A stretch of DNA of 64,000 bases from a virus (IMGVR_UViG_3300033073_001448:1-64000); one strand, 5' to 3'; positions 20,421 through 57,186 are shown, counted from the stretch's first letter. Numbers and translations are program-made. The notes: generated from the letters alone by a model not told the origin.

Positions 20421-20635
20421 TATCTTTTACTCCCGAACAAGACCAATACCTGCAACTGGCTCAAACTCGTGCTTACTATGATGGCGTGCGCGAAGGCGTG
20501 ACTATGTATGCCCACTGGAAAGATGGTGAGCAGTATGTGGGCACCACTGGTCGCACACTCAAAGAAGCCATTGAGCGAGTGAGCTTGGCCGAAGCCGATG
20601 TGCTGAGTCGTTTTCGCAACATGGCATTGATCTAA
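20417..20635 (+). CDS. hypothetical protein
   Basis: ATGA coupling; AHWKDGEQYVGTTG. Confidence 0.7.
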   Translation: MISFTPEQDQYLQLAQTRAYYDGVREGVTMYAHWKDGEQYVGTTGRTLKEAIERVSLAEADVLSRFRNMALI

Positions 20636-20880
20636 TGATGGCACGACCCGTTCATTTACCTTACCGAGCCTCTAACCCGCGAAGCATTCGTGGTGCAAAA
20701 AAACGTGGGTGGACTGTGGTTCGTGTTCGGAACAACTATTCAGAAACTACATCCTGGATGGGGTTGAATATTTGGTGTGAACGCGGGGTTGGTGGCTATT
20801 GGCTGTCAAGTTTTCATTATCGTGAATTTGCATTTGAAAATGGTCGAGATGCTACAATGTTCAAATTGAAATGGGGCTGA
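20635..20880 (+). CDS. FxL(R/K)W family small protein
   Basis: NIWCE...FAFENGRDATMFKLKWG. Confidence 0.8.
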   Translation: MMARPVHLPYRASNPRSIRGAKKRGWTVVRVRNNYSETTSWMGLNIWCERGVGGYWLSSFHYREFAFENGRDATMFKLKWG

Positions 20881-27685: not shown

Positions 27686-27785
27686 GTATTACAAAAGTAT
27701 TACTTTTTTCTGAATATTTTTGGTTGACCCAAAATGCTCATTTTGCTATAATATACACATAGACACACAAAAGGAGCCTCAAATG
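27686..27785 (+). promoter_or_regulatory. GTANTAC dyad + early promoter + RBS cassette
   Basis: GTATTAC-4-GTATTAC, TTGACC-17-TATAAT, AAGGAG. Confidence 0.85.
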
Positions 27786-28037: not shown

Positions 28038-28121
28038 TACTTGAGTATTACATTTCGTGGTTGACCCAAAATGCCCGTTTTGCTATAATATAGACATACA
28101 GACACAAAGGAGCCCGAGATG
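28034..28121 (+). promoter_or_regulatory. GTANTAC dyad + early promoter + RBS cassette
   Basis: GTAATAC-TTGA-GTATTAC, TTGACC-17-TATAAT, AAGGAG; near copy of 27722-27785. Confidence 0.85.
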
Positions 28122-28569: not shown

Positions 28570-28658
28570 TGAACGTAGATGCTCTAATTAACTTTGGTAT
28601 TGTTTTTAGTCCTATTATAATCATGGCCTTGGCCTTGCTGATCAAAGGAGAATTGTGA
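28569..28658 (+). CDS. small membrane peptide (29 aa)
   Basis: TAATG/TGATG coupling, single TM. Confidence 0.5.
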   Translation: MNVDALINFGIVFSPIIIMALALLIKGEL

Positions 28659-28816
28659 TGCGACAAAAACTTTACACTGTGAGTTGGACCCAAGCCTATG
28701 ACACCTGGACAAAAAACGAATTACTGTCTGGTGCCGAAGAGATAGTAGAAATTGGTTTGCAATTCTCTGACTTTGCCGAAGCCCGCGAAGTTCTGGCCAG
28801 GATTATGTCACTATGA
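28658..28816 (+). CDS. hypothetical protein (52 aa)
   Basis: AAGGAG SD, coupled at both ends. Confidence 0.55.
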   Translation: MRQKLYTVSWTQAYDTWTKNELLSGAEEIVEIGLQFSDFAEAREVLARIMSL

Positions 28817-29169
28817 AATGGTTCGTTGAAACTACCCAGTGGAGCGATTCTACCGTCAACGGCATTTACCTGCTGGATGACTCCAAGAGCAAGATGTATG
28901 CGTATCGACCCAATGCCCGAGCACCAATCAAAACATTCAAAGCACCTATCAAAATTGATATTCGAGGACGAAAGTTTGCCGTCAATCCCACACAATACCG
29001 CACGACAGTCGAAGAAGAACAGCCCGAAGGTCGCGTATGGGAAGTTAAAGGAAGCAAGGGCGATGTCTACAAAGTTTCAGAAAGTGGTGGAAATTTCTCA
29101 TGCACATGCTCGGGGTTCAAGTTTCGGGGCAAATGTAAGCACGAAGAAAGTATTCGTCAAACGGTTTGA
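28813..29169 (+). CDS. SWIM zinc finger protein
   Basis: GSKG..Y.V...CTCSGFKFRGKCKH. Confidence 0.85.
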   Translation: MKWFVETTQWSDSTVNGIYLLDDSKSKMYAYRPNARAPIKTFKAPIKIDIRGRKFAVNPTQYRTTVEEEQPEGRVWEVKGSKGDVYKVSESGGNFSCTCSGFKFRGKCKHEESIRQTV

Positions 29170-29173
29170 CCGT

Positions 29174-29326
29174 GTGAGCATGGCGCAGTGGCAGGAAATG
29201 GCTGACTGGTGCTACAACAATCTCTACCATGGCGGTCACTATGAGCCTAACTGGCATCACGAGTGGCCCACTTTTTACTTCTGGGACGAACGGGAATATA
29301 CCTTGTTCTTGTTGAGGTGGTCATGA
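29174..29326 (+). CDS. FxL(R/K)W family small protein (start uncertain)
   Basis: MADWCY...FYFWDEREYTLFLLRWS. Confidence 0.7.
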   Translation: MSMAQWQEMADWCYNNLYHGGHYEPNWHHEWPTFYFWDEREYTLFLLRWS

Positions 29327-29544
29327 AAGATACAAAAATAGACATAGATGTTAACCTAAGACGTGCCGCATTAATTTGGGCACGGGAAACCTTTGGTATG
29401 CCAAAACCCCAAGGAGTCGGTTTCTGTGACATGCGCTGGTATCACCGTAGTTTTGCCTCAGTCAACGAACGCAATAAAACCATTGCACGATTTTATTTCA
29501 AGAATCCAGCAGACGCTACATTGTTTGCGTTGAGGTGGTCATGA
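29323..29544 (+). CDS. FxL(R/K)W family small protein
   Basis: LIWARETFG...FYFKNPADATLFALRWS. Confidence 0.8.
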   Translation: MKDTKIDIDVNLRRAALIWARETFGMPKPQGVGFCDMRWYHRSFASVNERNKTIARFYFKNPADATLFALRWS

Positions 29545-29795
29545 GATTAGAATTCAATCAAGGTGTCTCACAAGAGTGTATAGATTGGTTGTGGGCTAAT
29601 GTTGGGCAGGGCAATGTTCAGCCAAAGATAACTGGACCGTTGCGGACATTTTCTCCTTGCGATAACGATGCTTGGTTCTACGAGCGTGTGTTCATACCAA
29701 ACCCAGGAACATTTCGTGGTGAAGGCCGTAATGTGCCTACTATTACGGTAAAGGATCCAAAGATGGCCGTGATGTTCGCACTGAGGTGGGCATGA
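29541..29795 (+). CDS. FxL(R/K)W family small protein
   Basis: IDWLWANVG...VKDPKMAVMFALRWA. Confidence 0.8.
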   Translation: MRLEFNQGVSQECIDWLWANVGQGNVQPKITGPLRTFSPCDNDAWFYERVFIPNPGTFRGEGRNVPTITVKDPKMAVMFALRWA

Positions 29796-30019
29796 AAAAC
29801 GAATTCAATCAATGGTATGTGGCAACTGTATCGCCGCCGCCATATCCTTCTGGGGTATATCATGGATGGACTCCTTGTATGGATTGGTGCAGAACTGCGT
29901 TTGGTGGCGATCCTGCCGCACCTATAACCGTTGGTGCTGGCTGGCGATATCTTTCCGAAGGGGTGTTTGAGTTTGAACGTGAGTTAGATAGAACTGCATT
30001 TTTACTGAGGTGGTCATGA
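29792..30019 (+). CDS. FxL(R/K)W family small protein
   Basis: MDWCRTAFG...FEFERELDRTAFLLRWS. Confidence 0.8.
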   Translation: MKNEFNQWYVATVSPPPYPSGVYHGWTPCMDWCRTAFGGDPAAPITVGAGWRYLSEGVFEFERELDRTAFLLRWS

Positions 30020-30309
30020 AATACCTAATTGCTTTCTTATTGTCAGTAAGCCTGCCGGCGTTGTCGGCTCCGCAACATAACATCACATTTGAAGCCAAAG
30101 AAAATCTTCCTGAAGTCAGTGTACGATGGGCAGTAGTCGATAACGTTGATGAAGTATGCCGATTTTATGGTGTCCAAACCCATCGCAACATTGCCGCTTG
30201 CTCAATCTATGATGGTAAAAAGTGTTTGATAATAACTGCTCGACGCCTGGATATGGCTGTGTTAGGACACGAACTAAGACATTGTTTTGAAGGTCGATGG
30301 CACAATTAA
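30016..30309 (+). CDS. secreted mini zincin-like protein
   Basis: Signal peptide; GHELRHC (HExxH). Confidence 0.7.
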   Translation: MKYLIAFLLSVSLPALSAPQHNITFEAKENLPEVSVRWAVVDNVDEVCRFYGVQTHRNIAACSIYDGKKCLIITARRLDMAVLGHELRHCFEGRWHN

Positions 30310-30331
30310 AAAAGCCCCTTTAGGGGCTTTT
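30310..30331. terminator. bidirectional intrinsic terminator
   Basis: AAAAGCCCCT-TT-AGGGGCTTTT. Confidence 0.85.
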
Positions 30332-37441: not shown

Positions 37442-38152
37442 ATGAACACTATGATCGCGAATATGAAAGAACTTTCAACCTTTGACGACTTTGATTGGTT
37501 AGACTCTACATCCAAACGGCCGCCACGTGAAATTGCATTTTCGGATGATCCAGTGGCTTTGGCAGTGGCCAGTCATCGACTGTGGATCGAAGGTGGCCCG
37601 CGCTGGTGCGAACTGGACAAAATGAAGCCTACAGATCAAGATCGTACCACTGCACAACAACTGCGCGGTTACTATCGACAGCGCATGGTCATGGAAAAAC
37701 TCAAACAAACCACTGGGGTAGAAACCAGCAGTTTTAGAAAAAAACTGGGACAGTTGGTCACTGATCAACTCTGCATTACCTCAGACGAAGTTGGTATGCT
37801 GATGCGATTGCCGTATTTTTACGCCGAGGATCAAGCAGTGGATCAGGTCATGTCTAATACCGAGTCAGCACAGTTACATCTACGGGGCCAACCCTATACC
37901 GGTGAGTTCACTTTGGTTCAGCGTGTGTTGCGTAGCCGCCGTAGTGGTGAGTATTATGATTATTGGCTTACTGACGGTGCAAGCCCAACTGCTCACAGGT
38001 TTGTCATGAAAACTGACAATCCTTTGCGTCAATTCATGGAAACTTACATGGATCAAAAATTCCAGGCTCGGGTGTTGATCTACACACAGCCCATGCGCGG
38101 TTTTTGGCGCGGCCGAAATGTGTATCAGGTGGCGTTCGTTGGGGTAGCATAA
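37442..38152 (+). CDS. hypothetical protein
   Basis: Long ORF in operon. Confidence 0.7.
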   Translation: MNTMIANMKELSTFDDFDWLDSTSKRPPREIAFSDDPVALAVASHRLWIEGGPRWCELDKMKPTDQDRTTAQQLRGYYRQRMVMEKLKQTTGVETSSFRKKLGQLVTDQLCITSDEVGMLMRLPYFYAEDQAVDQVMSNTESAQLHLRGQPYTGEFTLVQRVLRSRRSGEYYDYWLTDGASPTAHRFVMKTDNPLRQFMETYMDQKFQARVLIYTQPMRGFWRGRNVYQVAFVGVA

Positions 38153-38370
38153 TGCATCCTGTGGTAGTTCTGCACGTCAACGCTGTGAGAGCTTTGGAAC
38201 TACGAGATCAAGTTTTGAGTCATGGATTAATACAAGATCGAGATTTTGTCTGGGAGTACACACAGGCCTCTTATGACAATGATGGGTATACCGCAGTAAC
38301 TCCGCGTCAAGTCAAGTTTAAATTTGTGGATCCAGCCATGGCCACATTTTTCAATCTTAAATGGAGGTAA
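38152..38370 (+). CDS. FxL(R/K)W family small protein
   Basis: FKFVDPAMATFFNLKWR. Confidence 0.75.
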   Translation: MHPVVVLHVNAVRALELRDQVLSHGLIQDRDFVWEYTQASYDNDGYTAVTPRQVKFKFVDPAMATFFNLKWR

Positions 38371-38377
38371 GTAGAAG

Positions 38378-39178
38378 ATGTCAAAGATACTTGCTATTTT
38401 ACTGTTTGTCATGGCTTTTTCAACACAGGCGCATGAAAGCATTTTGGTCTACAACGTATCACAAAATGTTATAGAAATGCAACGCAACGCCGATGCTATT
38501 CGTCCTATTGCATCAATCACTAAACTTATGACTGCTATCACTACTTTGGACTGGGACAAAGACCTAAGTCGTAAATTGTTATTGAGTGGTCGAGCCGGTA
38601 GCCATTTACCTCGTCAATCTTACAATCGCTATCAACTGTTGATGGCCATGCTGATTCGTTCAGACAATGCTGCCGCTGAAACATTGGCTGAAGATTATCC
38701 CGGCGGACGAGAAGCATTTATTGAGACTATGAATCGCAAAGCCAAAGACTGGGGCATGACTCACACTCATTTTGCCGACGCATCAGGACTCAGTGCCAGC
38801 AATGTTTCAACTGCACGAGATGTTATGAATTTAGTTGAAACTGCTTCGGGTTATTGGCTTATACAAGAAGCAAGCAAGCAGAAACAAATTGCACTGGAAA
38901 CCAAAGCAAAGAAAAAAGTCAGAACTATCGGACTGTCACATACTTCGGGACCGTTATTGTTTGTGTTTGATCAAGTCACTGTGAGCAAGACTGGACTTAC
39001 TTCGGCAGCAGGTTGGTGTGTAGGAATGATGGCCCAACAAAACGGGCAGTCGTACATTGTTGTGGTTTTGGGATCCAAAACCAAACAACAACGATTTGAC
39101 ACAGTCAAAGACATACGATATAATCATTTCACTGATAAAAATTTATTCGATACACCATTACCTAATAATTATAGATAA
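38378..39178 (+). CDS. peptidase S11 (D-Ala-D-Ala carboxy/endopeptidase, PbpG-like)
   Basis: Signal peptide, SITK (SxxK), SDN, KTG. Confidence 0.9.
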   Translation: MSKILAILLFVMAFSTQAHESILVYNVSQNVIEMQRNADAIRPIASITKLMTAITTLDWDKDLSRKLLLSGRAGSHLPRQSYNRYQLLMAMLIRSDNAAAETLAEDYPGGREAFIETMNRKAKDWGMTHTHFADASGLSASNVSTARDVMNLVETASGYWLIQEASKQKQIALETKAKKKVRTIGLSHTSGPLLFVFDQVTVSKTGLTSAAGWCVGMMAQQNGQSYIVVVLGSKTKQQRFDTVKDIRYNHFTDKNLFDTPLPNNYR

Positions 39179-39408
39179 TGCAACTCGAATCATATCAGAT
39201 TAGAGACAAAGAATCCTTTGCTTACGCCAAAGAAATTGCTAAACCTTTTGGTCAATTAGATGTAATTATTGATTGGTGCAGAACGGAACTTTCTGGTGAG
39301 TGGCGCTGGCAGTTGATCCGCACATCCACAGACCGCGAACCTGGCCGCTACATTTTTTACTTTGACTCTGACCGTGATTGCTGTGCGTTTACATTGAAGT
39401 GGCAGTAA
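39178..39408 (+). CDS. FxL(R/K)W family small protein
   Basis: IDWCR...FYFDSDRDCCAFTLKWQ. Confidence 0.8.
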   Translation: MQLESYQIRDKESFAYAKEIAKPFGQLDVIIDWCRTELSGEWRWQLIRTSTDREPGRYIFYFDSDRDCCAFTLKWQ

Positions 39409-52169: not shown

Positions 52170-52206
52170 GTATTACATTGACCAATAATCCTATATTTGC
52201 TATAAT
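52170..52206 (+). promoter_or_regulatory. GTATTAC site + sigma70 promoter, leaderless start
   Basis: TTGACC-17-TATAAT, ATG 6 nt downstream. Confidence 0.8.
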
Positions 52207-52212
52207 ATAGGC

Positions 52213-52440
52213 ATGATTACGCAAACAACCAAGACTTACATTTGTCTGCGCCCTGGCGACCCGGACTTTGCATTTTCGCCCAATGGCATCTCCCTGGTGC
52301 CACGTGCAGGTTTTGAAATCAGCAAAAAGTGTCCGGACCATTACAAACAGATTTTAATGGAATGCTTGCGGCATGACTGGATCACGCCTGTGGCACACAT
52401 GCGCGACACTGAATATACCATGGAGTTACTTCGAAAATGA
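52213..52440 (+). CDS. hypothetical protein
   Basis: PRAGFEI...CP. Confidence 0.7.
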   Translation: MITQTTKTYICLRPGDPDFAFSPNGISLVPRAGFEISKKCPDHYKQILMECLRHDWITPVAHMRDTEYTMELLRK

Positions 52441-52832: not shown

Positions 52833-53037
52833 ACCGCATTTTATTGTGGCTGACCCAGAGATAGCTCGTAGTCTTGGTCAACCTGTGATTGTGATGTTGA
52901 GCGACATTGCATTTTGGAACATAAATTATGATTCATTGCATGAATGGTGTCGGCAAAATCACAGTGAAGTGCAAGGTATGACTGTGAATATCCCCGACGA
53001 TGTCACACTCACTGCATTTTGTTTGAGGTGGGCATGA
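52825..53037 (+). CDS. FxL(R/K)W family small protein
   Basis: HEWCR...IPDDVTLTAFCLRWA. Confidence 0.75.
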   Translation: MAKPHFIVADPEIARSLGQPVIVMLSDIAFWNINYDSLHEWCRQNHSEVQGMTVNIPDDVTLTAFCLRWA

Positions 53038-53270
53038 TCGAAATTACATTGAACAATCAACTCTGTGATCGAGTGCTATATTATGAAACTGGATTCGAAC
53101 AACTGCATCCTTTGCCTGAAATTCATTGCTGGATGGATCAGCGTGGCCAAACCTACCAACAAGATTGGCATGTCAAGCGTGTAAACCACACCATGTATCA
53201 ACGCAGTCATTACATGTTGGTTATCAACAACGACCAAATAGCAACTGAATTTGTACTACGCTGGCTATGA
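53034..53270 (+). CDS. FxL(R/K)W family small protein
   Basis: HCWMD...INNDQIATEFVLRWL. Confidence 0.8.
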   Translation: MIEITLNNQLCDRVLYYETGFEQLHPLPEIHCWMDQRGQTYQQDWHVKRVNHTMYQRSHYMLVINNDQIATEFVLRWL

Positions 53271-53485
53271 TAAAATATCACTATCCCTGGCCTGAGCAGG
53301 CACCTACACTAAAGGTTCCAGTGTTACACCGTGTGAACTTTTCGGGTTATCGTTTTGCAGAAATGCGTGAGTGGTTGGAAGCCAACTGTAGGGCACCATA
53401 CTACACCAGTCCAGGATGGACCGGCAACTTTGTTGAGTTTGAAGACGACCAGGATGCCACTGCATTTGCACTGAGGTGGTCATGA
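53267..53485 (+). CDS. FxL(R/K)W family small protein
   Basis: REWLE...EFEDDQDATAFALRWS. Confidence 0.8.
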   Translation: MIKYHYPWPEQAPTLKVPVLHRVNFSGYRFAEMREWLEANCRAPYYTSPGWTGNFVEFEDDQDATAFALRWS

Positions 53486-53706
53486 TCTTAGCCACAGTCA
53501 AACTGTATCATCCGAAACAACAAAATCGTTGGGTTGACGAAAGCCCTATCAATGTGTGGCTGTTGGCCAATGTTGGTGTTCATGCCCGCTATAGAGATTT
53601 AGTAGACGAATCAAGACCGTGGCATGTGGATCATGAAAGAGATTATCTTGTGTATCACTTTGCTCGTGAGCGCGATGCCACAGCGTTTGCACTGAAGTTT
53701 GCATGA
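53482..53706 (+). CDS. FxL(R/K)W family small protein
   Basis: NVWLLANVG...HFARERDATAFALKFA. Confidence 0.8.
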   Translation: MILATVKLYHPKQQNRWVDESPINVWLLANVGVHARYRDLVDESRPWHVDHERDYLVYHFARERDATAFALKFA

Positions 53707-53924
53707 ATCCACTGTTGGTTCACGAAGTTGTAATCTACAACGATGATTGGTACAAGGCAGAAGCTTGGTGCGAGCAAAACATTGGGCAATTTAATATCAC
53801 ATGGTATAAACTTGGTATTGATCCGTTGGAGATGATGATGCGTTCCCCAGGAGCCAAAACCAAGACAGTTTGGTATTTCCTCCGCGAACAAGACGCAACA
53901 ATGTTTAAACTAAAATGGACGTGA
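53703..53924 (+). CDS. FxL(R/K)W family small protein
   Basis: EAWCEQNIG...YFLREQDATMFKLKWT. Confidence 0.8.
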   Translation: MNPLLVHEVVIYNDDWYKAEAWCEQNIGQFNITWYKLGIDPLEMMMRSPGAKTKTVWYFLREQDATMFKLKWT

Positions 53925-54136
53925 TGGGTACCAAAACATTTGCTGAAAAGGGCAGAGTTCGACTGGTGGGTGACGAAAGAGATGTCGCTGTGGTTTCAAA
54001 CTATCGCGAAGATGTATGGGCATGGTGCGATGCCAACAACATCGAGGTGGAATATCAAGGAACTTTGGCCAAAGTAGATCTCTGGCGTATTCGCAATGAG
54101 CAACAACGTGTGGCATTTTTATTAAAATGGAGTTAG
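53915..54136 (+). CDS. FxL(R/K)W family small protein (start 53915 or 53924)
   Basis: WAWCD...RIRNEQQRVAFLLKWS. Confidence 0.8.
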   Translation: MDVMGTKTFAEKGRVRLVGDERDVAVVSNYREDVWAWCDANNIEVEYQGTLAKVDLWRIRNEQQRVAFLLKWS

Positions 54137-54378
54137 ATATCAGCGAAGGCTCAGTGTATGGTGCAAGGTACTATACTGTGCGCCCAATGTTTCCAGCACA
54201 TGCGCCAACTTGGTTTAGGCAAGAATGGGATGATATGCTACAATGGTGTGTTAGTACATTCGGTCCCACACCTGAAGATGGTGTATGGACACCTGGTGCT
54301 CGCTGGTATGTCAACAATTCTAAGTTTTGGTTTCGAAATGAGCAAGATCGCTCTTGGTTTGTATTAAGGTGGACATGA
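54127..54378 (+). CDS. FxL(R/K)W family small protein
   Basis: LQWCVSTFG...WFRNEQDRSWFVLRWT. Confidence 0.8.
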   Translation: MELDISEGSVYGARYYTVRPMFPAHAPTWFRQEWDDMLQWCVSTFGPTPEDGVWTPGARWYVNNSKFWFRNEQDRSWFVLRWT

Positions 54379-54623
54379 TGCCGGAACGATTTTGTGTACC
54401 GATTACCTATGGCAACTTTGGTGAAAAGTGGCCCACATACTTTGAAAACTTTTTTCGACATTGCAATGAAATAGCCGAAGCCAATGGCTGGATGCCTATT
54501 ACCGTGATGAACCATCAACTAAAACCCTATGGAGGCAAACTGATTATGACCAAAACACAAGGATGGTATCTGCGATGGGACACCGAATCTGCACAAACGG
54601 CGTTTGTACTGAAATGGAATTAA
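54375..54623 (+). CDS. FxL(R/K)W family small protein
   Basis: RWDTESAQTAFVLKWN. Confidence 0.8.
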   Translation: MMPERFCVPITYGNFGEKWPTYFENFFRHCNEIAEANGWMPITVMNHQLKPYGGKLIMTKTQGWYLRWDTESAQTAFVLKWN

Positions 54624-54625
54624 TT

Positions 54626-54922
54626 ATGTCAGGATTTCAATCAAAGCGCATGATAACAACCCATGGACGAGGAATGGGCAAATCAGTTTGGGCCAATATG
54701 ATTAGAGAACTAACAATGCCAGATGTAAAAGTTTTGGACAGTGCCGACGTTGACGGAAAAACATGGTATACAGTACAATTGAGTATGCCTGCCAGGGAGT
54801 GGCTACGGGAACAACCTACAGAAGATTGGCATGAGCACATTGATCAACGATATTACGTAAATCAAAGTATGTTTGACATAAGTGAACAGATGTATTCAGC
54901 ACTGACATTAAAATGGAGTTGA
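54626..54922 (+). CDS. FxL(R/K)W family small protein (start 54614 or 54626)
   Basis: REWLRE...FDISEQMYSALTLKWS. Confidence 0.75.
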   Translation: MSGFQSKRMITTHGRGMGKSVWANMIRELTMPDVKVLDSADVDGKTWYTVQLSMPAREWLREQPTEDWHEHIDQRYYVNQSMFDISEQMYSALTLKWS

Positions 54923-55290
54923 ATACACCTTTCAAAATTAGGGACCTGCCCGACAATTCATGGTCAGTGAGTTGGCCCGGCTATGAATATGTTTTGGTCA
55001 ACAACATTGTCAAGGCACAGAATTTACTTGAAATTTTATTTGACAAACTCAAAATCAATGAAGTAGAGTTAGCTCTGCGTAGAGAAGGTTGGAGTGAAGA
55101 TAAAACCGAAATCATGCACGTCAATGTGTCTGCCTGGTGGCAAGATAAAGTCGGTTTGGCAAAGTATCTCACTGATTTTATTGTTGTAGGAATAAAGTTT
55201 AGAGATCTTGCTAAAGCAGAACAATTCAAAGACATTATGGACAAGCGACTAATGTGGTCCAGACTCAGCGGCGGAAAAAAGTGGAAATGA
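54913..55290 (+). CDS. hypothetical protein
   Basis: Starts inside the KW codons of the upstream gene. Confidence 0.7.
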   Translation: MELNTPFKIRDLPDNSWSVSWPGYEYVLVNNIVKAQNLLEILFDKLKINEVELALRREGWSEDKTEIMHVNVSAWWQDKVGLAKYLTDFIVVGIKFRDLAKAEQFKDIMDKRLMWSRLSGGKKWK

Positions 55291-55574
55291 ACTACAATCC
55301 TGCGCCGCCTGTTAAGTTGGGTAGAAGCATTGGCTGGAACTTGGATAGACAGGACATGGAAATAACCCAACGCATACACGACGGTGCAGGATGTTATCCT
55401 TGGCGCAAGACATTTTTATTGGTTCCTAGACGTAGCATTACCGGTCAAGAACTTTGGATGACTGTTGCCTACAAACGACGATACTGGGCAGTATGGGGCA
55501 CCGGATTTCATTACGAACCTCACGTAGAATATGCTACAATATTTGAAATACTAGCAGACCAGAGAGAACAATGA
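55287..55574 (+). CDS. hypothetical protein
   Basis: Coupled ORF. Confidence 0.65.
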   Translation: MNYNPAPPVKLGRSIGWNLDRQDMEITQRIHDGAGCYPWRKTFLLVPRRSITGQELWMTVAYKRRYWAVWGTGFHYEPHVEYATIFEILADQREQ

Positions 55575-55774
55575 ACGTCGCAAAAGAAAACACATTTAGA
55601 GCCTTAAAGGATGATCCATTGTTGATTACTTCGTGGCTGTGTAGATTTGGTTGGCATCGTTGGACACAATGGTCAGAAGTGTATTTGCCCAAGAATGGCA
55701 AAAACAACATTCAACATGGCCATTGCGGCTGTTGCAACAAAATGCGAGTTAGAATAGTGGTAGGTCCGATATGA
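55571..55774 (+). CDS. hypothetical protein (Cys/His, DUF1660-like)
   Basis: LCRFGWHRW...CGCC. Confidence 0.65.
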   Translation: MNVAKENTFRALKDDPLLITSWLCRFGWHRWTQWSEVYLPKNGKNNIQHGHCGCCNKMRVRIVVGPI

Positions 55775-56106
55775 AAGCCTGTGTTTGGTATACCATAGAT
55801 GAACGGGTTCCGCCCCGTAGTGGCTACTACCTTGGCTTCAAAGGCATGAGCATGGGCGACAGTGAAACTGGCTGTGACTATTATTACTGGAACGCCAAAT
55901 CAGCGGAGTGGCGAGAAAGTCAAATCAGCAATGCGCATCCGGTCAATGTGGTGTATTGGACTGAAGCAGATCCCGGCGGCTGGTATGACAAGTATCGTAT
56001 TCGACAGAAGTCCGGACCCTTGCCTCCAGCAGAACAAGATGCTTGGAATGAAGTACAACGAGCAATCGAACGATATGAAATGGTAAAGGCTTTGACACAG
56101 TTATGA
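55771..56106 (+). CDS. hypothetical protein (DUF551-like)
   Basis: W.TIDERVP..SG.YL, V.YW. Confidence 0.65.
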   Translation: MKACVWYTIDERVPPRSGYYLGFKGMSMGDSETGCDYYYWNAKSAEWRESQISNAHPVNVVYWTEADPGGWYDKYRIRQKSGPLPPAEQDAWNEVQRAIERYEMVKALTQL

Positions 56107-56333
56107 ACAAAATAATTTGGGACATAGACAAAGAAGATCCGATGCATATCAGAATCTGGGCATCAAGTGATGACTACAACTTAAAACTGCCACCAATGGC
56201 CAGTATTTTCTTAGGCGAGGCCATGGAATCTGCAGGCCGAGAAGCAGTGATGAGTCATATCGCGGAAATTGATCGTAGCCCCTGGATACGTGCCTGGCAC
56301 GCTGACCATACTTTCAAACTGTTAAAGAGATAA
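56103..56333 (+). CDS. hypothetical protein
   Basis: Coupled ORF. Confidence 0.6.
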   Translation: MNKIIWDIDKEDPMHIRIWASSDDYNLKLPPMASIFLGEAMESAGREAVMSHIAEIDRSPWIRAWHADHTFKLLKR

Positions 56334-56336
56334 AAT

Positions 56337-56804
56337 ATGAACTACAATTCTATGACAGATCTTGAACTGTTACACTACTTGGATATCTACAGCGACGATC
56401 CACTGGTTCGCAGACTGATTGATGTGCTCACAAGAACTCGTGGTGCAATTATTTCAGACCTTGAAGAAGCAGGCATGGATCCACAGACCTGGACATTCGG
56501 CGATGGCTGGGAACAGCAGTTTCCAGGACAATACATTATAGATCTCAAGAAACAAGTAACATACGCTGAAGAAGAACTTGAGGGTGTAAAATACAAACTG
56601 GAAGAAGCAGAAAAAGAGCTTGACGAGCTCAAGACTCGTAGCATTATGGACTTTGTTCAAGAAGTTTGGCAAGAGAAGCGAACTGCTACTTTCAAAGTTC
56701 AAGAAGCGTTGAAAGAAGCCGAACATCAGCGCAAAGAAAATGATCGCCTTCGAGAGCAGATTGACATGTGGGGCAAACTTAACCAAGTGAAACAAGGAGT
56801 GTAA
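56337..56804 (+). CDS. coiled-coil protein
   Basis: Heptad-rich C-half. Confidence 0.7.
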   Translation: MNYNSMTDLELLHYLDIYSDDPLVRRLIDVLTRTRGAIISDLEEAGMDPQTWTFGDGWEQQFPGQYIIDLKKQVTYAEEELEGVKYKLEEAEKELDELKTRSIMDFVQEVWQEKRTATFKVQEALKEAEHQRKENDRLREQIDMWGKLNQVKQGV

Positions 56805-56805
56805 A

Positions 56806-57186
56806 ATGGATTGGGAAAAATCGGAAGTGGTACGACTACTCAAGGGCGCACCGGGCACACACTATCAAGAAGCAGATGATACAAATAAAACAATTATTAG
56901 AGATTGGATTCGCAGTCTGCTACAAAGAAGTTCTATCACAGTGACCTTTGTCAAAGCCGACGGCACTGTGCGCGACATGAAATGTACTCTAAACTGGGAG
57001 TTAATTCCTGTAGACAAACAGCCCAAGGGCGATGTTCCTGTGGAAAATTTGCTTAAAGAAAACAAAAAACCCCGCAAAGAACCTGATCCGCACAGCCTCA
57101 GGGTATTTGACATTGAGAAGCAAGAATGGCGCAGTTTCCGTTTTGACCGACTGCAAAAGGTCACTGCGGAATTAGAATTCAAATAA
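56806..57186 (+). CDS. SH3/WYL_2-like phage protein
   Basis: VTFVKADGTVRDM.CTL, VFDIEKQEWRSFR. Confidence 0.8.
   Translation: MDWEKSEVVRLLKGAPGTHYQEADDTNKTIIRDWIRSLLQRSSITVTFVKADGTVRDMKCTLNWELIPVDKQPKGDVPVENLLKENKKPRKEPDPHSLRVFDIEKQEWRSFRFDRLQKVTAELEFK

Follow-up and report, generated by a model that had tools for sequence, protein, structure and literature searches.

Gene-end junctions that probably combine translation signals with cassette changes in small-gene arrays of a viral contig

In most bacterial groups, more than half of the overlapping gene pairs carry an intragenic Shine-Dalgarno (SD) sequence, and among 5 E. coli pairs, 4 showed less re-initiation once the SD had been removed (Huber et al. 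2019, PMC6728339). At the level of transcription, T4-type phages possess PeSL cassettes, which consist of a sigma-70 promoter and a terminator hairpin (Arbiol et al. 2010, PMC2839356; Comeau et al. 2014, PMC4122927). PeSLs mediate the shuffling of small ORFs, with mini-circles demonstrated (PMC2839356), and the ORFs concerned are non-essential and lie in variable regions. Additionally, a mycobacteriophage example is known in which an inserted gene and its upstream neighbour have their last 18 codons in common (PMC3029335).

The locus presented in this paper can be compared with each of these systems. As in the overlapping pairs (PMC6728339), a 4-nt or 1-nt stop/start overlap is combined with an SD within the 3' end of the upstream gene. 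Unlike those pairs, one SD-stop-start string is formed here by the conserved C-terminal codons of a single protein family and recurs at hundreds of junctions in many phages, the coupling being predicted. As with PeSLs, short repeated expression signals are found between small ORFs, and indels or replacements between close relatives occur at the repeats. However, PeSLs are intergenic and transcriptional, whereas the junction is a translation signal of 14-15 nt within coding sequence, known here from contigs alone; neither promoter nor terminator was found at the junctions by consensus scans and folding. The 3'-end homology of the mycobacteriophage example (PMC3029335) is paralleled by the neighbouring genes 53267-53485 and 53482-53706, which share their 3' ends, and the boundary 'linker' sequences of phages (PMC3029335) offer a likeness in homologous recombination at short shared gene-end sequences; unlike the linkers and the single mycobacteriophage case, the junction recurs systematically and belongs to a single protein family. 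Integron cassettes are likewise promoterless arrays of small ORFs behind one promoter, with variable content and a repeat at each boundary. Unlike integron attC, the junction is asymmetric, 14-15 nt long, not an imperfect palindrome and without significant fold, and one protein family is present throughout. Thus the novelty is the combination, namely a family-wide C-terminus co-opted via codon choice as SD, stop and start, and marking cassette polymorphisms; the mechanistic principles are variants of known ones.

The window, i.e. the whole stretch of 64,000 nt that was analyzed, covers the initial 64 kb of a viral contig of 92 kb from IMG/VR (IMGVR_UViG_3300033073_001448). CheckV completeness is 27%, and the contig is therefore probably a jumbo phage fragment; with the runs containing it being mainly freshwater metagenomes, the source is probably a large freshwater phage. 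The gene content of the window includes a GroEL-type chaperonin, two radical-SAM enzymes, and an ATP-dependent DNA ligase. Searches of 50,697 cultured-phage records using blastn with array 1 and tblastn with a typical family member (P0013) gave no match, and tblastn with a 722-aa neighbouring protein gave a 43-residue match and nothing more.

As seen in Table 1, paralogous small proteins of about 48-99 aa are encoded by 13 genes in two arrays and by 3 solitary genes. All members end in F-x-L-[RK]-W-x-stop. Their common traits are a W-C/L helix, a W-Y turn, an F-x-F strand, and the C-terminal D-A-T-x-F-x-L-[RK]-W-x, while pairwise identity is just 21-33%. The first members of both arrays are short (48 aa for 29180-29326 and about 47-63 aa for 52846-53037) and align without the N-terminal beta-hairpin. 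In the 97-aa member P0077, the last 20 or so residues appear twice in tandem (ending ALRWT and then ALKWS, each after KAMWF), which resembles the product of an in-frame fusion of part of a cassette at a junction. Scans of 10 members against Pfam (E<=1) and PHROGs (E<=0.1) produced no match. A profile search of 1.84 billion representatives recovered at least 1118 metagenomic clusters at E<=1e-3, whose members are all metagenomic and unnamed or 'hypothetical'; among the 150 matches listed, nearly all run to their own C-terminus and 122 end in LRW-x or LKW-x. The AlphaFold2 model (98-sequence alignment) has a pLDDT of 94 and the order beta-beta-alpha-beta-beta-alpha, with the conserved motif as the last helix. 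Foldseek found no PDB match to the model at E<=0.001, the structural search of BFVD returned uncharacterised proteins of uncultured phages only, and that of the Atlas returned unnamed viral clusters only, with neighbours lacking a Pfam family. The wide VIA-align search yielded generic two-layer alpha/beta folds (ACT-like, ferredoxin-like) at Z<=5.7, which were not accepted as a fold assignment.

Table 1. Arrays, junctions, solitary family members and transcription signals in the window
Feature	Position	Strand	Remarks
Solitary member, FKLKWG-stop	20635..20880	+	Profile built from array members
Sigma-70-like promoter, 10/12	28594..28621	+	Heads array-1 operon; consensus scan
Array 1: four tandem family genes (48, 73, 84, 75 aa), ATGA overlap each to next	29180..30019	+
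Junction TGAGGTGGTCATGA	29313..29326	+	Ends gene 29180-29326 (LRWS-stop); putative SD GAGGTG; ATG of 29323-29544
Junction, family genes 29323-29544 / 29541-29795	29531..29544	+	Pattern match
Junction, family genes 29541-29795 / 29792-30019	29782..29795	+	Right-hand repeat of 469-nt indel
Junction, last array-1 family gene / non-family signal-peptide gene 30016-30309	30006..30019	+	Pattern match
Predicted terminator, GC-rich hairpin with T tracts on both sides	30310..30331	.	Closes array-1 operon
Solitary, weaker member, LKWR-stop	38152..38370	+	Profile built from array members
Solitary member, FTLKWQ-stop, AAG codon, no abutting start	39178..39408	+	Profile built from array members
Sigma-70-like promoter, TTGACC-17-TATAAT, 11/12, TG	52178..52206	+	Heads array-2 operon; consensus scan
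Array 2: nine tandem family genes	52846..54922	+	Start of first gene uncertain
Array-2 genes 1-5	52846?-53037, 53034-53270, 53267-53485, 53482-53706, 53703-53924	+
Array-2 genes 6-9	53915-54136, 54127-54378, 54375-54623, 54626-54922	+
Junction TGAGGTGGGCATGA	53024..53037	+	Kept as orphan after 130-aa gene in relatives without the cassette body
Junction without SD, CTA-CGC-TGG-CTA-TGA (LRWL-stop, ATGA overlap)	53256..53270	+	Sole non-AGG LRW in window
Junction	53472..53485	+	Left end of one-cassette indel 53486-53706 relative to L088-L096
LKW junction, AAA-TGG with ATG 53915	53911..53926	+	Second in-frame ATG 53924 (TGATG)
LKW junction, embedded ATG 54127	54123..54136	+	Only nearby start for next ORF; 10-nt overlap
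Variant junction TAAGGTGGACATGA, LRWT-stop	54365..54378	+	Pattern match
LKW junction, embedded ATG 54614	54610..54628	+	Second in-frame ATG 54626
LKW junction, embedded ATG 54913	54909..54922	+	Opens non-family gene 54913-55290

Each array appears to form an operon behind one strong promoter-like site, and inside both arrays consensus scans gave only weaker promoter matches (9-10/12). Strong promoter-like sites of nearly identical sequence (TTGACC-17-TATAAT, extended -10 TG) are present at three positions, 27724-27752, 28061-28089, and 52178-52206; the last of these stops 6 nt short of the ATG at 52213, which leaves no space for an SD. Directly 5' of array 1, positions 28813-29169 encode a 118-aa protein with a C-x-C...C-x-H pattern (FSCTCSGFKFRGKCKH) resembling a SWIM zinc finger, for which no Pfam match was found at E<=0.001. 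The 97-aa non-family protein 3' of the last array-1 junction (30016-30309) begins with a segment resembling a signal peptide and carries HELRH (HExxH) close to its C-terminus; it has no Pfam match. In relatives, the region 3' of array 2 (L088:6518-8009) carries a WYL_2 gene, an IF-1/eIF-1A-like gene, an Fe/Mn superoxide dismutase, and an Fe-S biogenesis gene; the WYL_2 homologue of the window lies at 56806-57186 and differs at its N-terminus.

The genes of the arrays are joined by the element TRAGGTGGNCATGA, which occurs in 7 copies, all on the + strand. The chance expectation from dinucleotide shuffles is 0.01, 7 copies were reached in 0 of 100 shuffles, and no more copies exist in the rest of the 92-kb contig. 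In the upstream frame every copy reads Leu-Arg-Trp-(Ser/Ala/Thr)-stop, and at all 7 an ATGA overlap is present, whose ATG starts the next ORF. The hexamer GAGGTG sits inside the upstream gene, 3 nt before the ATG, so that GAGG ends 5 nt before it. All six bases of GAGGTG match an unbroken stretch of the canonical SD TAAGGAGGTGATC, whose complement is expected at the 16S 3' end of the host. The original prediction, made from the sequence of the window, fares well here: the seven positions that it named for the junction all match TRAGGTGGNCATGA on the + strand, its count of AGG in 7 of 8 LRW codons is correct (the exception being CGC at 53258), and the ATG that it placed in AAA-TGG at 53915, 54127, 54614, and 54913 shares the reading frame of the following ORF. 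When the RNA of all seven junctions was folded, no structure reached significance (z between -1.3 and +0.3), and hence there is no hint that the SD is masked in a way that would enforce strict coupling. Genes throughout this genome, non-family ones included, commonly overlap by ATGA, often with a weak SD or none; the junction is therefore a very uniform case of a genome-wide habit. The genome uses canonical AAGGAG-type SDs, with AAGGA, AGGAG, and TAAGG enriched about 17-18-fold upstream of starts.

The GTG within AGGTGG (29316-29325, and at all AGG-TGG junctions) shares the frame of the downstream ATG and precedes it by two codons. For this reason, ORF callers extend the downstream genes to GTG/TTG starts (29535, 29786, 30010, 53476); the ATGA start suits the SD spacing better.

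Cassette content differs between the window and its relatives. Two loci that are 97-99% identical to the window (L097 and L098) lack exactly 29327-29795, i.e. two cassettes or 469 nt, and their alignments overlap by 15 nt, which is the junction repeat present at both indel ends, the left-hand copy being 29313-29326. The identical joint, placeable within 5-8 shared letters, is found in contigs of three runs from three studies, while a fourth run has the long form. In the three runs parts of 29347-29731 are uncovered, and absence was read from the joining contigs and not from missing depth. Other joints, such as 28916->30513 and 29331->29524, come from a single deep run with short sides and were rejected as noise or other organisms.

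In a more distant lineage (L088-L096), the 75-aa and 130-aa flanking genes are 74-85% identical to those of the window. This lineage lacks the single cassette 53486-53706, with the crossover between GAGGTGG and ATGA in a 33-nt imperfect repeat; this repeat is the 3' tract shared by the neighbouring cassettes 53267-53485 and 53482-53706, in which codons are mostly identical. Three further cassettes (53925-54625, the left end of the indel being the LKW junction 53911..53926) are missing with breakpoints in the junction, the first array-2 cassette differs from that of the window, and the non-family gene block 54920-56811 is also absent. In the first cassette of L088 (L088:5554-5785), a 1-nt deletion relative to L091-L095 puts the C-terminal FALKWA out of frame, which is either a pseudogene or an assembly error. 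The cassettes 53267-53485 and 53703-53924 are 95% and 92% identical between the window and this lineage, with third-position identities of 0.92 and 0.91, compared to 0.54 in the flanking gene and 0.62 in the next cassette. Therefore, these two cassettes were recently exchanged between lineages that are about 25% diverged otherwise and just 74-80% identical in their flanking genes, and the exchanged high-identity tract ends at junctions. Among unrelated pairs compared for indels (L053/L056/L059, L012/L016, L030/L068, L061/L069, and L024/L060), five pure indels of 1-2 cassettes and three replacements have breakpoints 0-22 nt from family stops; the pure indels share 6-22 nt, compared to mostly 0-5 nt for indels elsewhere in the same loci. 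The expectation that cassettes would be gained and lost at the junction is thus borne out in relatives, where the breakpoints of cassette indels lie within it, and in contigs of three independent studies, which skip two cassettes at this site.

These breakpoints could also arise if illegitimate recombination were random and only indels at gene boundaries survived, making the junction irrelevant to recombination, while its SD role may still hold. Such a process is the standard model of phage mosaicism (PMC3029335). It would fit the non-family indels of the same comparisons, which also end at or near gene boundaries with 0-9 nt shared (54920-56811 relative to L088, and events in L012/L016 and L023/L024). 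Moreover, because the genes overlap by ATGA, only joints at the junction leave both neighbours intact, and selection alone would therefore concentrate breakpoints there. However, the pure indels at family junctions have repeats of 4-33 nt with a median of about 15, whereas non-family indels mostly have 0-5 nt, with one exception of 18 nt; the 469-nt joint recurs in three studies; and the exchanged tract ends exactly at junctions. Since the shared tracts are longer, the joint is recurrent, and the exchanged tract is bounded by junctions, the scale tips somewhat toward a mechanistic involvement of the junction in recombination, as judged from these comparisons, and random recombination followed by survival appears the less probable account, without being far-fetched.

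The second group of observations concerns codon choice. AGG is the rarest Arg codon of this genome, with 35 of 1032 Arg codons (3.4%) in ORFs of at least 150 aa and 3 of the 53 Arg codons that family genes have outside LRW, and its use in 7 of 8 LRW positions departs strongly from this (binomial p=4e-10). It represents 15% of AGR codons in the genome but 7 of 7 at LRW (p=2e-6). Descent from Lys codons was considered as the sole cause and rejected: it favours AGR over CGN, and leaves the 7/7 AGG among AGR (p=2e-6) unexplained.

An IMG/VR scan with a tighter family alignment recovered 80 related loci, many from contigs of 150-370 kb, which contain 408 family members, up to 21 per 10 kb. From these, 209 unique junctions ending in [LMIVF][RK][WFY]-x-stop were collected, which are not phylogenetically independent; 115 have an ATGA, 18 a GTGA, and 27 a TRATG overlap. 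Their Arg codons are AGG in 106 cases, AGA in 32, and CGN in 25, against an AGG share of 7.2% among the Arg codons of long ORFs in these loci and of 7.6% at the remaining Arg positions of family genes. The enrichment at the junction that the original prediction implied is therefore strong in this genome and in the 80 related loci alike. It depends on the neighbouring gene: AGG accounts for 72/97 Arg codons at ATGA overlaps and 18/22 at TAATG overlaps, and for 2/23 with no abutting start. Where the abutting start opens at least 45 codons, AGG is found at 100/132 junctions, compared to 6/31 without one (Fisher OR 13, p=8e-9), and after collapsing to 121 sequence clusters the values are 55/73 and 5/19 (p=2e-4). 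About 25% of the abutting junctions lack AGG. In addition, the Leu codon preceding AGG is TTG or CTG in 86% of cases, compared to 33% in the background and 38% before other codons. Since a G-ending Leu codon and AGG are both enriched, two synonymous sites are held to spell GAGGTG. In array-2 relatives without the first cassette body, GTGTTGAGGTGGGCATGA is retained between the stop of the 130-aa gene and the next cassette, and this orphan would be an SD and start outliving its protein. On these codon comparisons, the SD role of the junction is strongly supported. A separate exact-pattern scan of IMG/VR found at least 118 stretches, in which single matches are compatible with chance for a 14-mer; loci with 3-6 copies within a few kb are informative and, being selected by motif, were left out of the statistics.

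Could the junction be a by-product of a protein that needs L-R-W and of the ATGA habit, with AGG arising by descent or by AAG<->AGG interconversion? More than 1000 clusters conserve LRW/LKW in their proteins, non-family genes commonly overlap by ATGA, and K and R alternate at the Arg position, all of which are in keeping with this idea. However, the cassettes are otherwise unalignable and their synonymous sites are therefore saturated, and AGG makes up 106 of 138 AGR codons at the junction compared to 23% expected (p=7e-40). Furthermore, AGG falls to background where no start abuts the stop, the third base of the neighbouring Leu co-varies, and the orphan junction is kept without the protein. 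The by-product reading is thus largely refuted and very improbable. Concerted evolution, in which gene conversion homogenises the AGG and ATGA unit and no selection for ribosome binding acts, would explain how the two are co-inherited as a unit spreads, and the 33-nt 3' tract shared by 53267-53485 and 53482-53706 is of the type expected. Yet codon identity at identical residues of the last helix is 58% within arrays and 56% between unrelated contigs (47% and 47% for the R/K codon), and therefore local homogenisation is not the explanation; with AGG equally favoured in the different TAATG arrangement (18/22), there is very little to be said for it. A pause at the rare AGG three codons before the stop, slowing the ribosome for re-initiation with no 16S pairing, fits the rarity of the codon and its tie to the abutting start, but is highly unlikely, as it leaves unexplained the G at the third base of the preceding Leu, which only lengthens the SD match, the orphan junction, which no long ORF reads through, and the neglect of CGG, which is nearly as rare.

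Wherever a codon that ends in A precedes TGG, an ATG arises 7 nt ahead of the stop, and its reading frame is that of the ATGA start. In the window, a second in-frame ATG follows 9-12 nt downstream of 53915 and 54614, and the start is therefore ambiguous at these two sites. In the related loci, 181 of 201 downstream ORFs are in the frame of the embedded ATG or ATGA start, and 24 junctions (11 AAA, 7 AGA, and 6 CGA) have no start nearby other than the embedded ATG, as at 54127 and 54913. No SD is present upstream of embedded ATGs that are the sole candidate starts, and their translation would therefore need re-initiation after a 10-nt back-step or an AU-rich leader. A second, rarer architecture can be proposed, with the next start within NNA-TGG, a 10-nt overlap, and no SD. 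At 38355-38381, the codons TGG-AGG-TAA that close the weaker solitary member spell GGAGGT, with 11 nt between it and the following ATG; the family C-terminus thereby supplies an SD in another manner.

Taken together, it is probable that the family C-terminus acts both as SD and stop/start for the next gene and as the site where cassette changes resolve. As the codon statistics show, the Arg position accepts R or K, and AGG is retained where a downstream gene abuts the stop. Each cassette would then bring a ribosome-binding site and start codon for whatever comes next, and promoter-distal genes of the arrays may be translated by SD-assisted re-initiation or direct initiation, without intergenic DNA; re-initiation by the terminating ribosome and independent initiation are equally possible on the present sequences. 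The junction is the only DNA common to the otherwise unalignable cassettes, and cassette deletions, insertions, and inter-phage exchanges resolve at it in the loci compared. A more far-reaching proposal, which is tentative and which we consider rather doubtful, is that the junction serves as attachment site in a cassette system that works without an integrase, allowing excision and reinsertion at any junction or array, also across co-infecting phages. Phage recombination or replication machinery would excise single cassettes, possibly as circles, and since C-terminus, SD, stop, and start would lie in one site, every product would be expressed at once.

The junction represents a clean natural case of triple constraint, by C-terminus, ribosome-binding site, and stop/start overlap, that is measurable as codon choice at hundreds of junctions. 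It also provides a systematic example for the long-debated 'conserved boundary sequence' route to phage mosaicism, with a polymorphism of cassette number visible in public metagenomes. For annotation, array starts are better called at the ATGA or embedded A-TGG than at the upstream GTG/TTG. Moreover, the junction marks a very large uncharacterised family, with at least 1100 clusters and phage contigs reaching 300-370 kb, and the dynamics of the arrays suggest an arms-race function. If the attachment-site proposal is true, the arrays would be a fast-evolving, exchangeable library of small effectors among freshwater jumbo phages.
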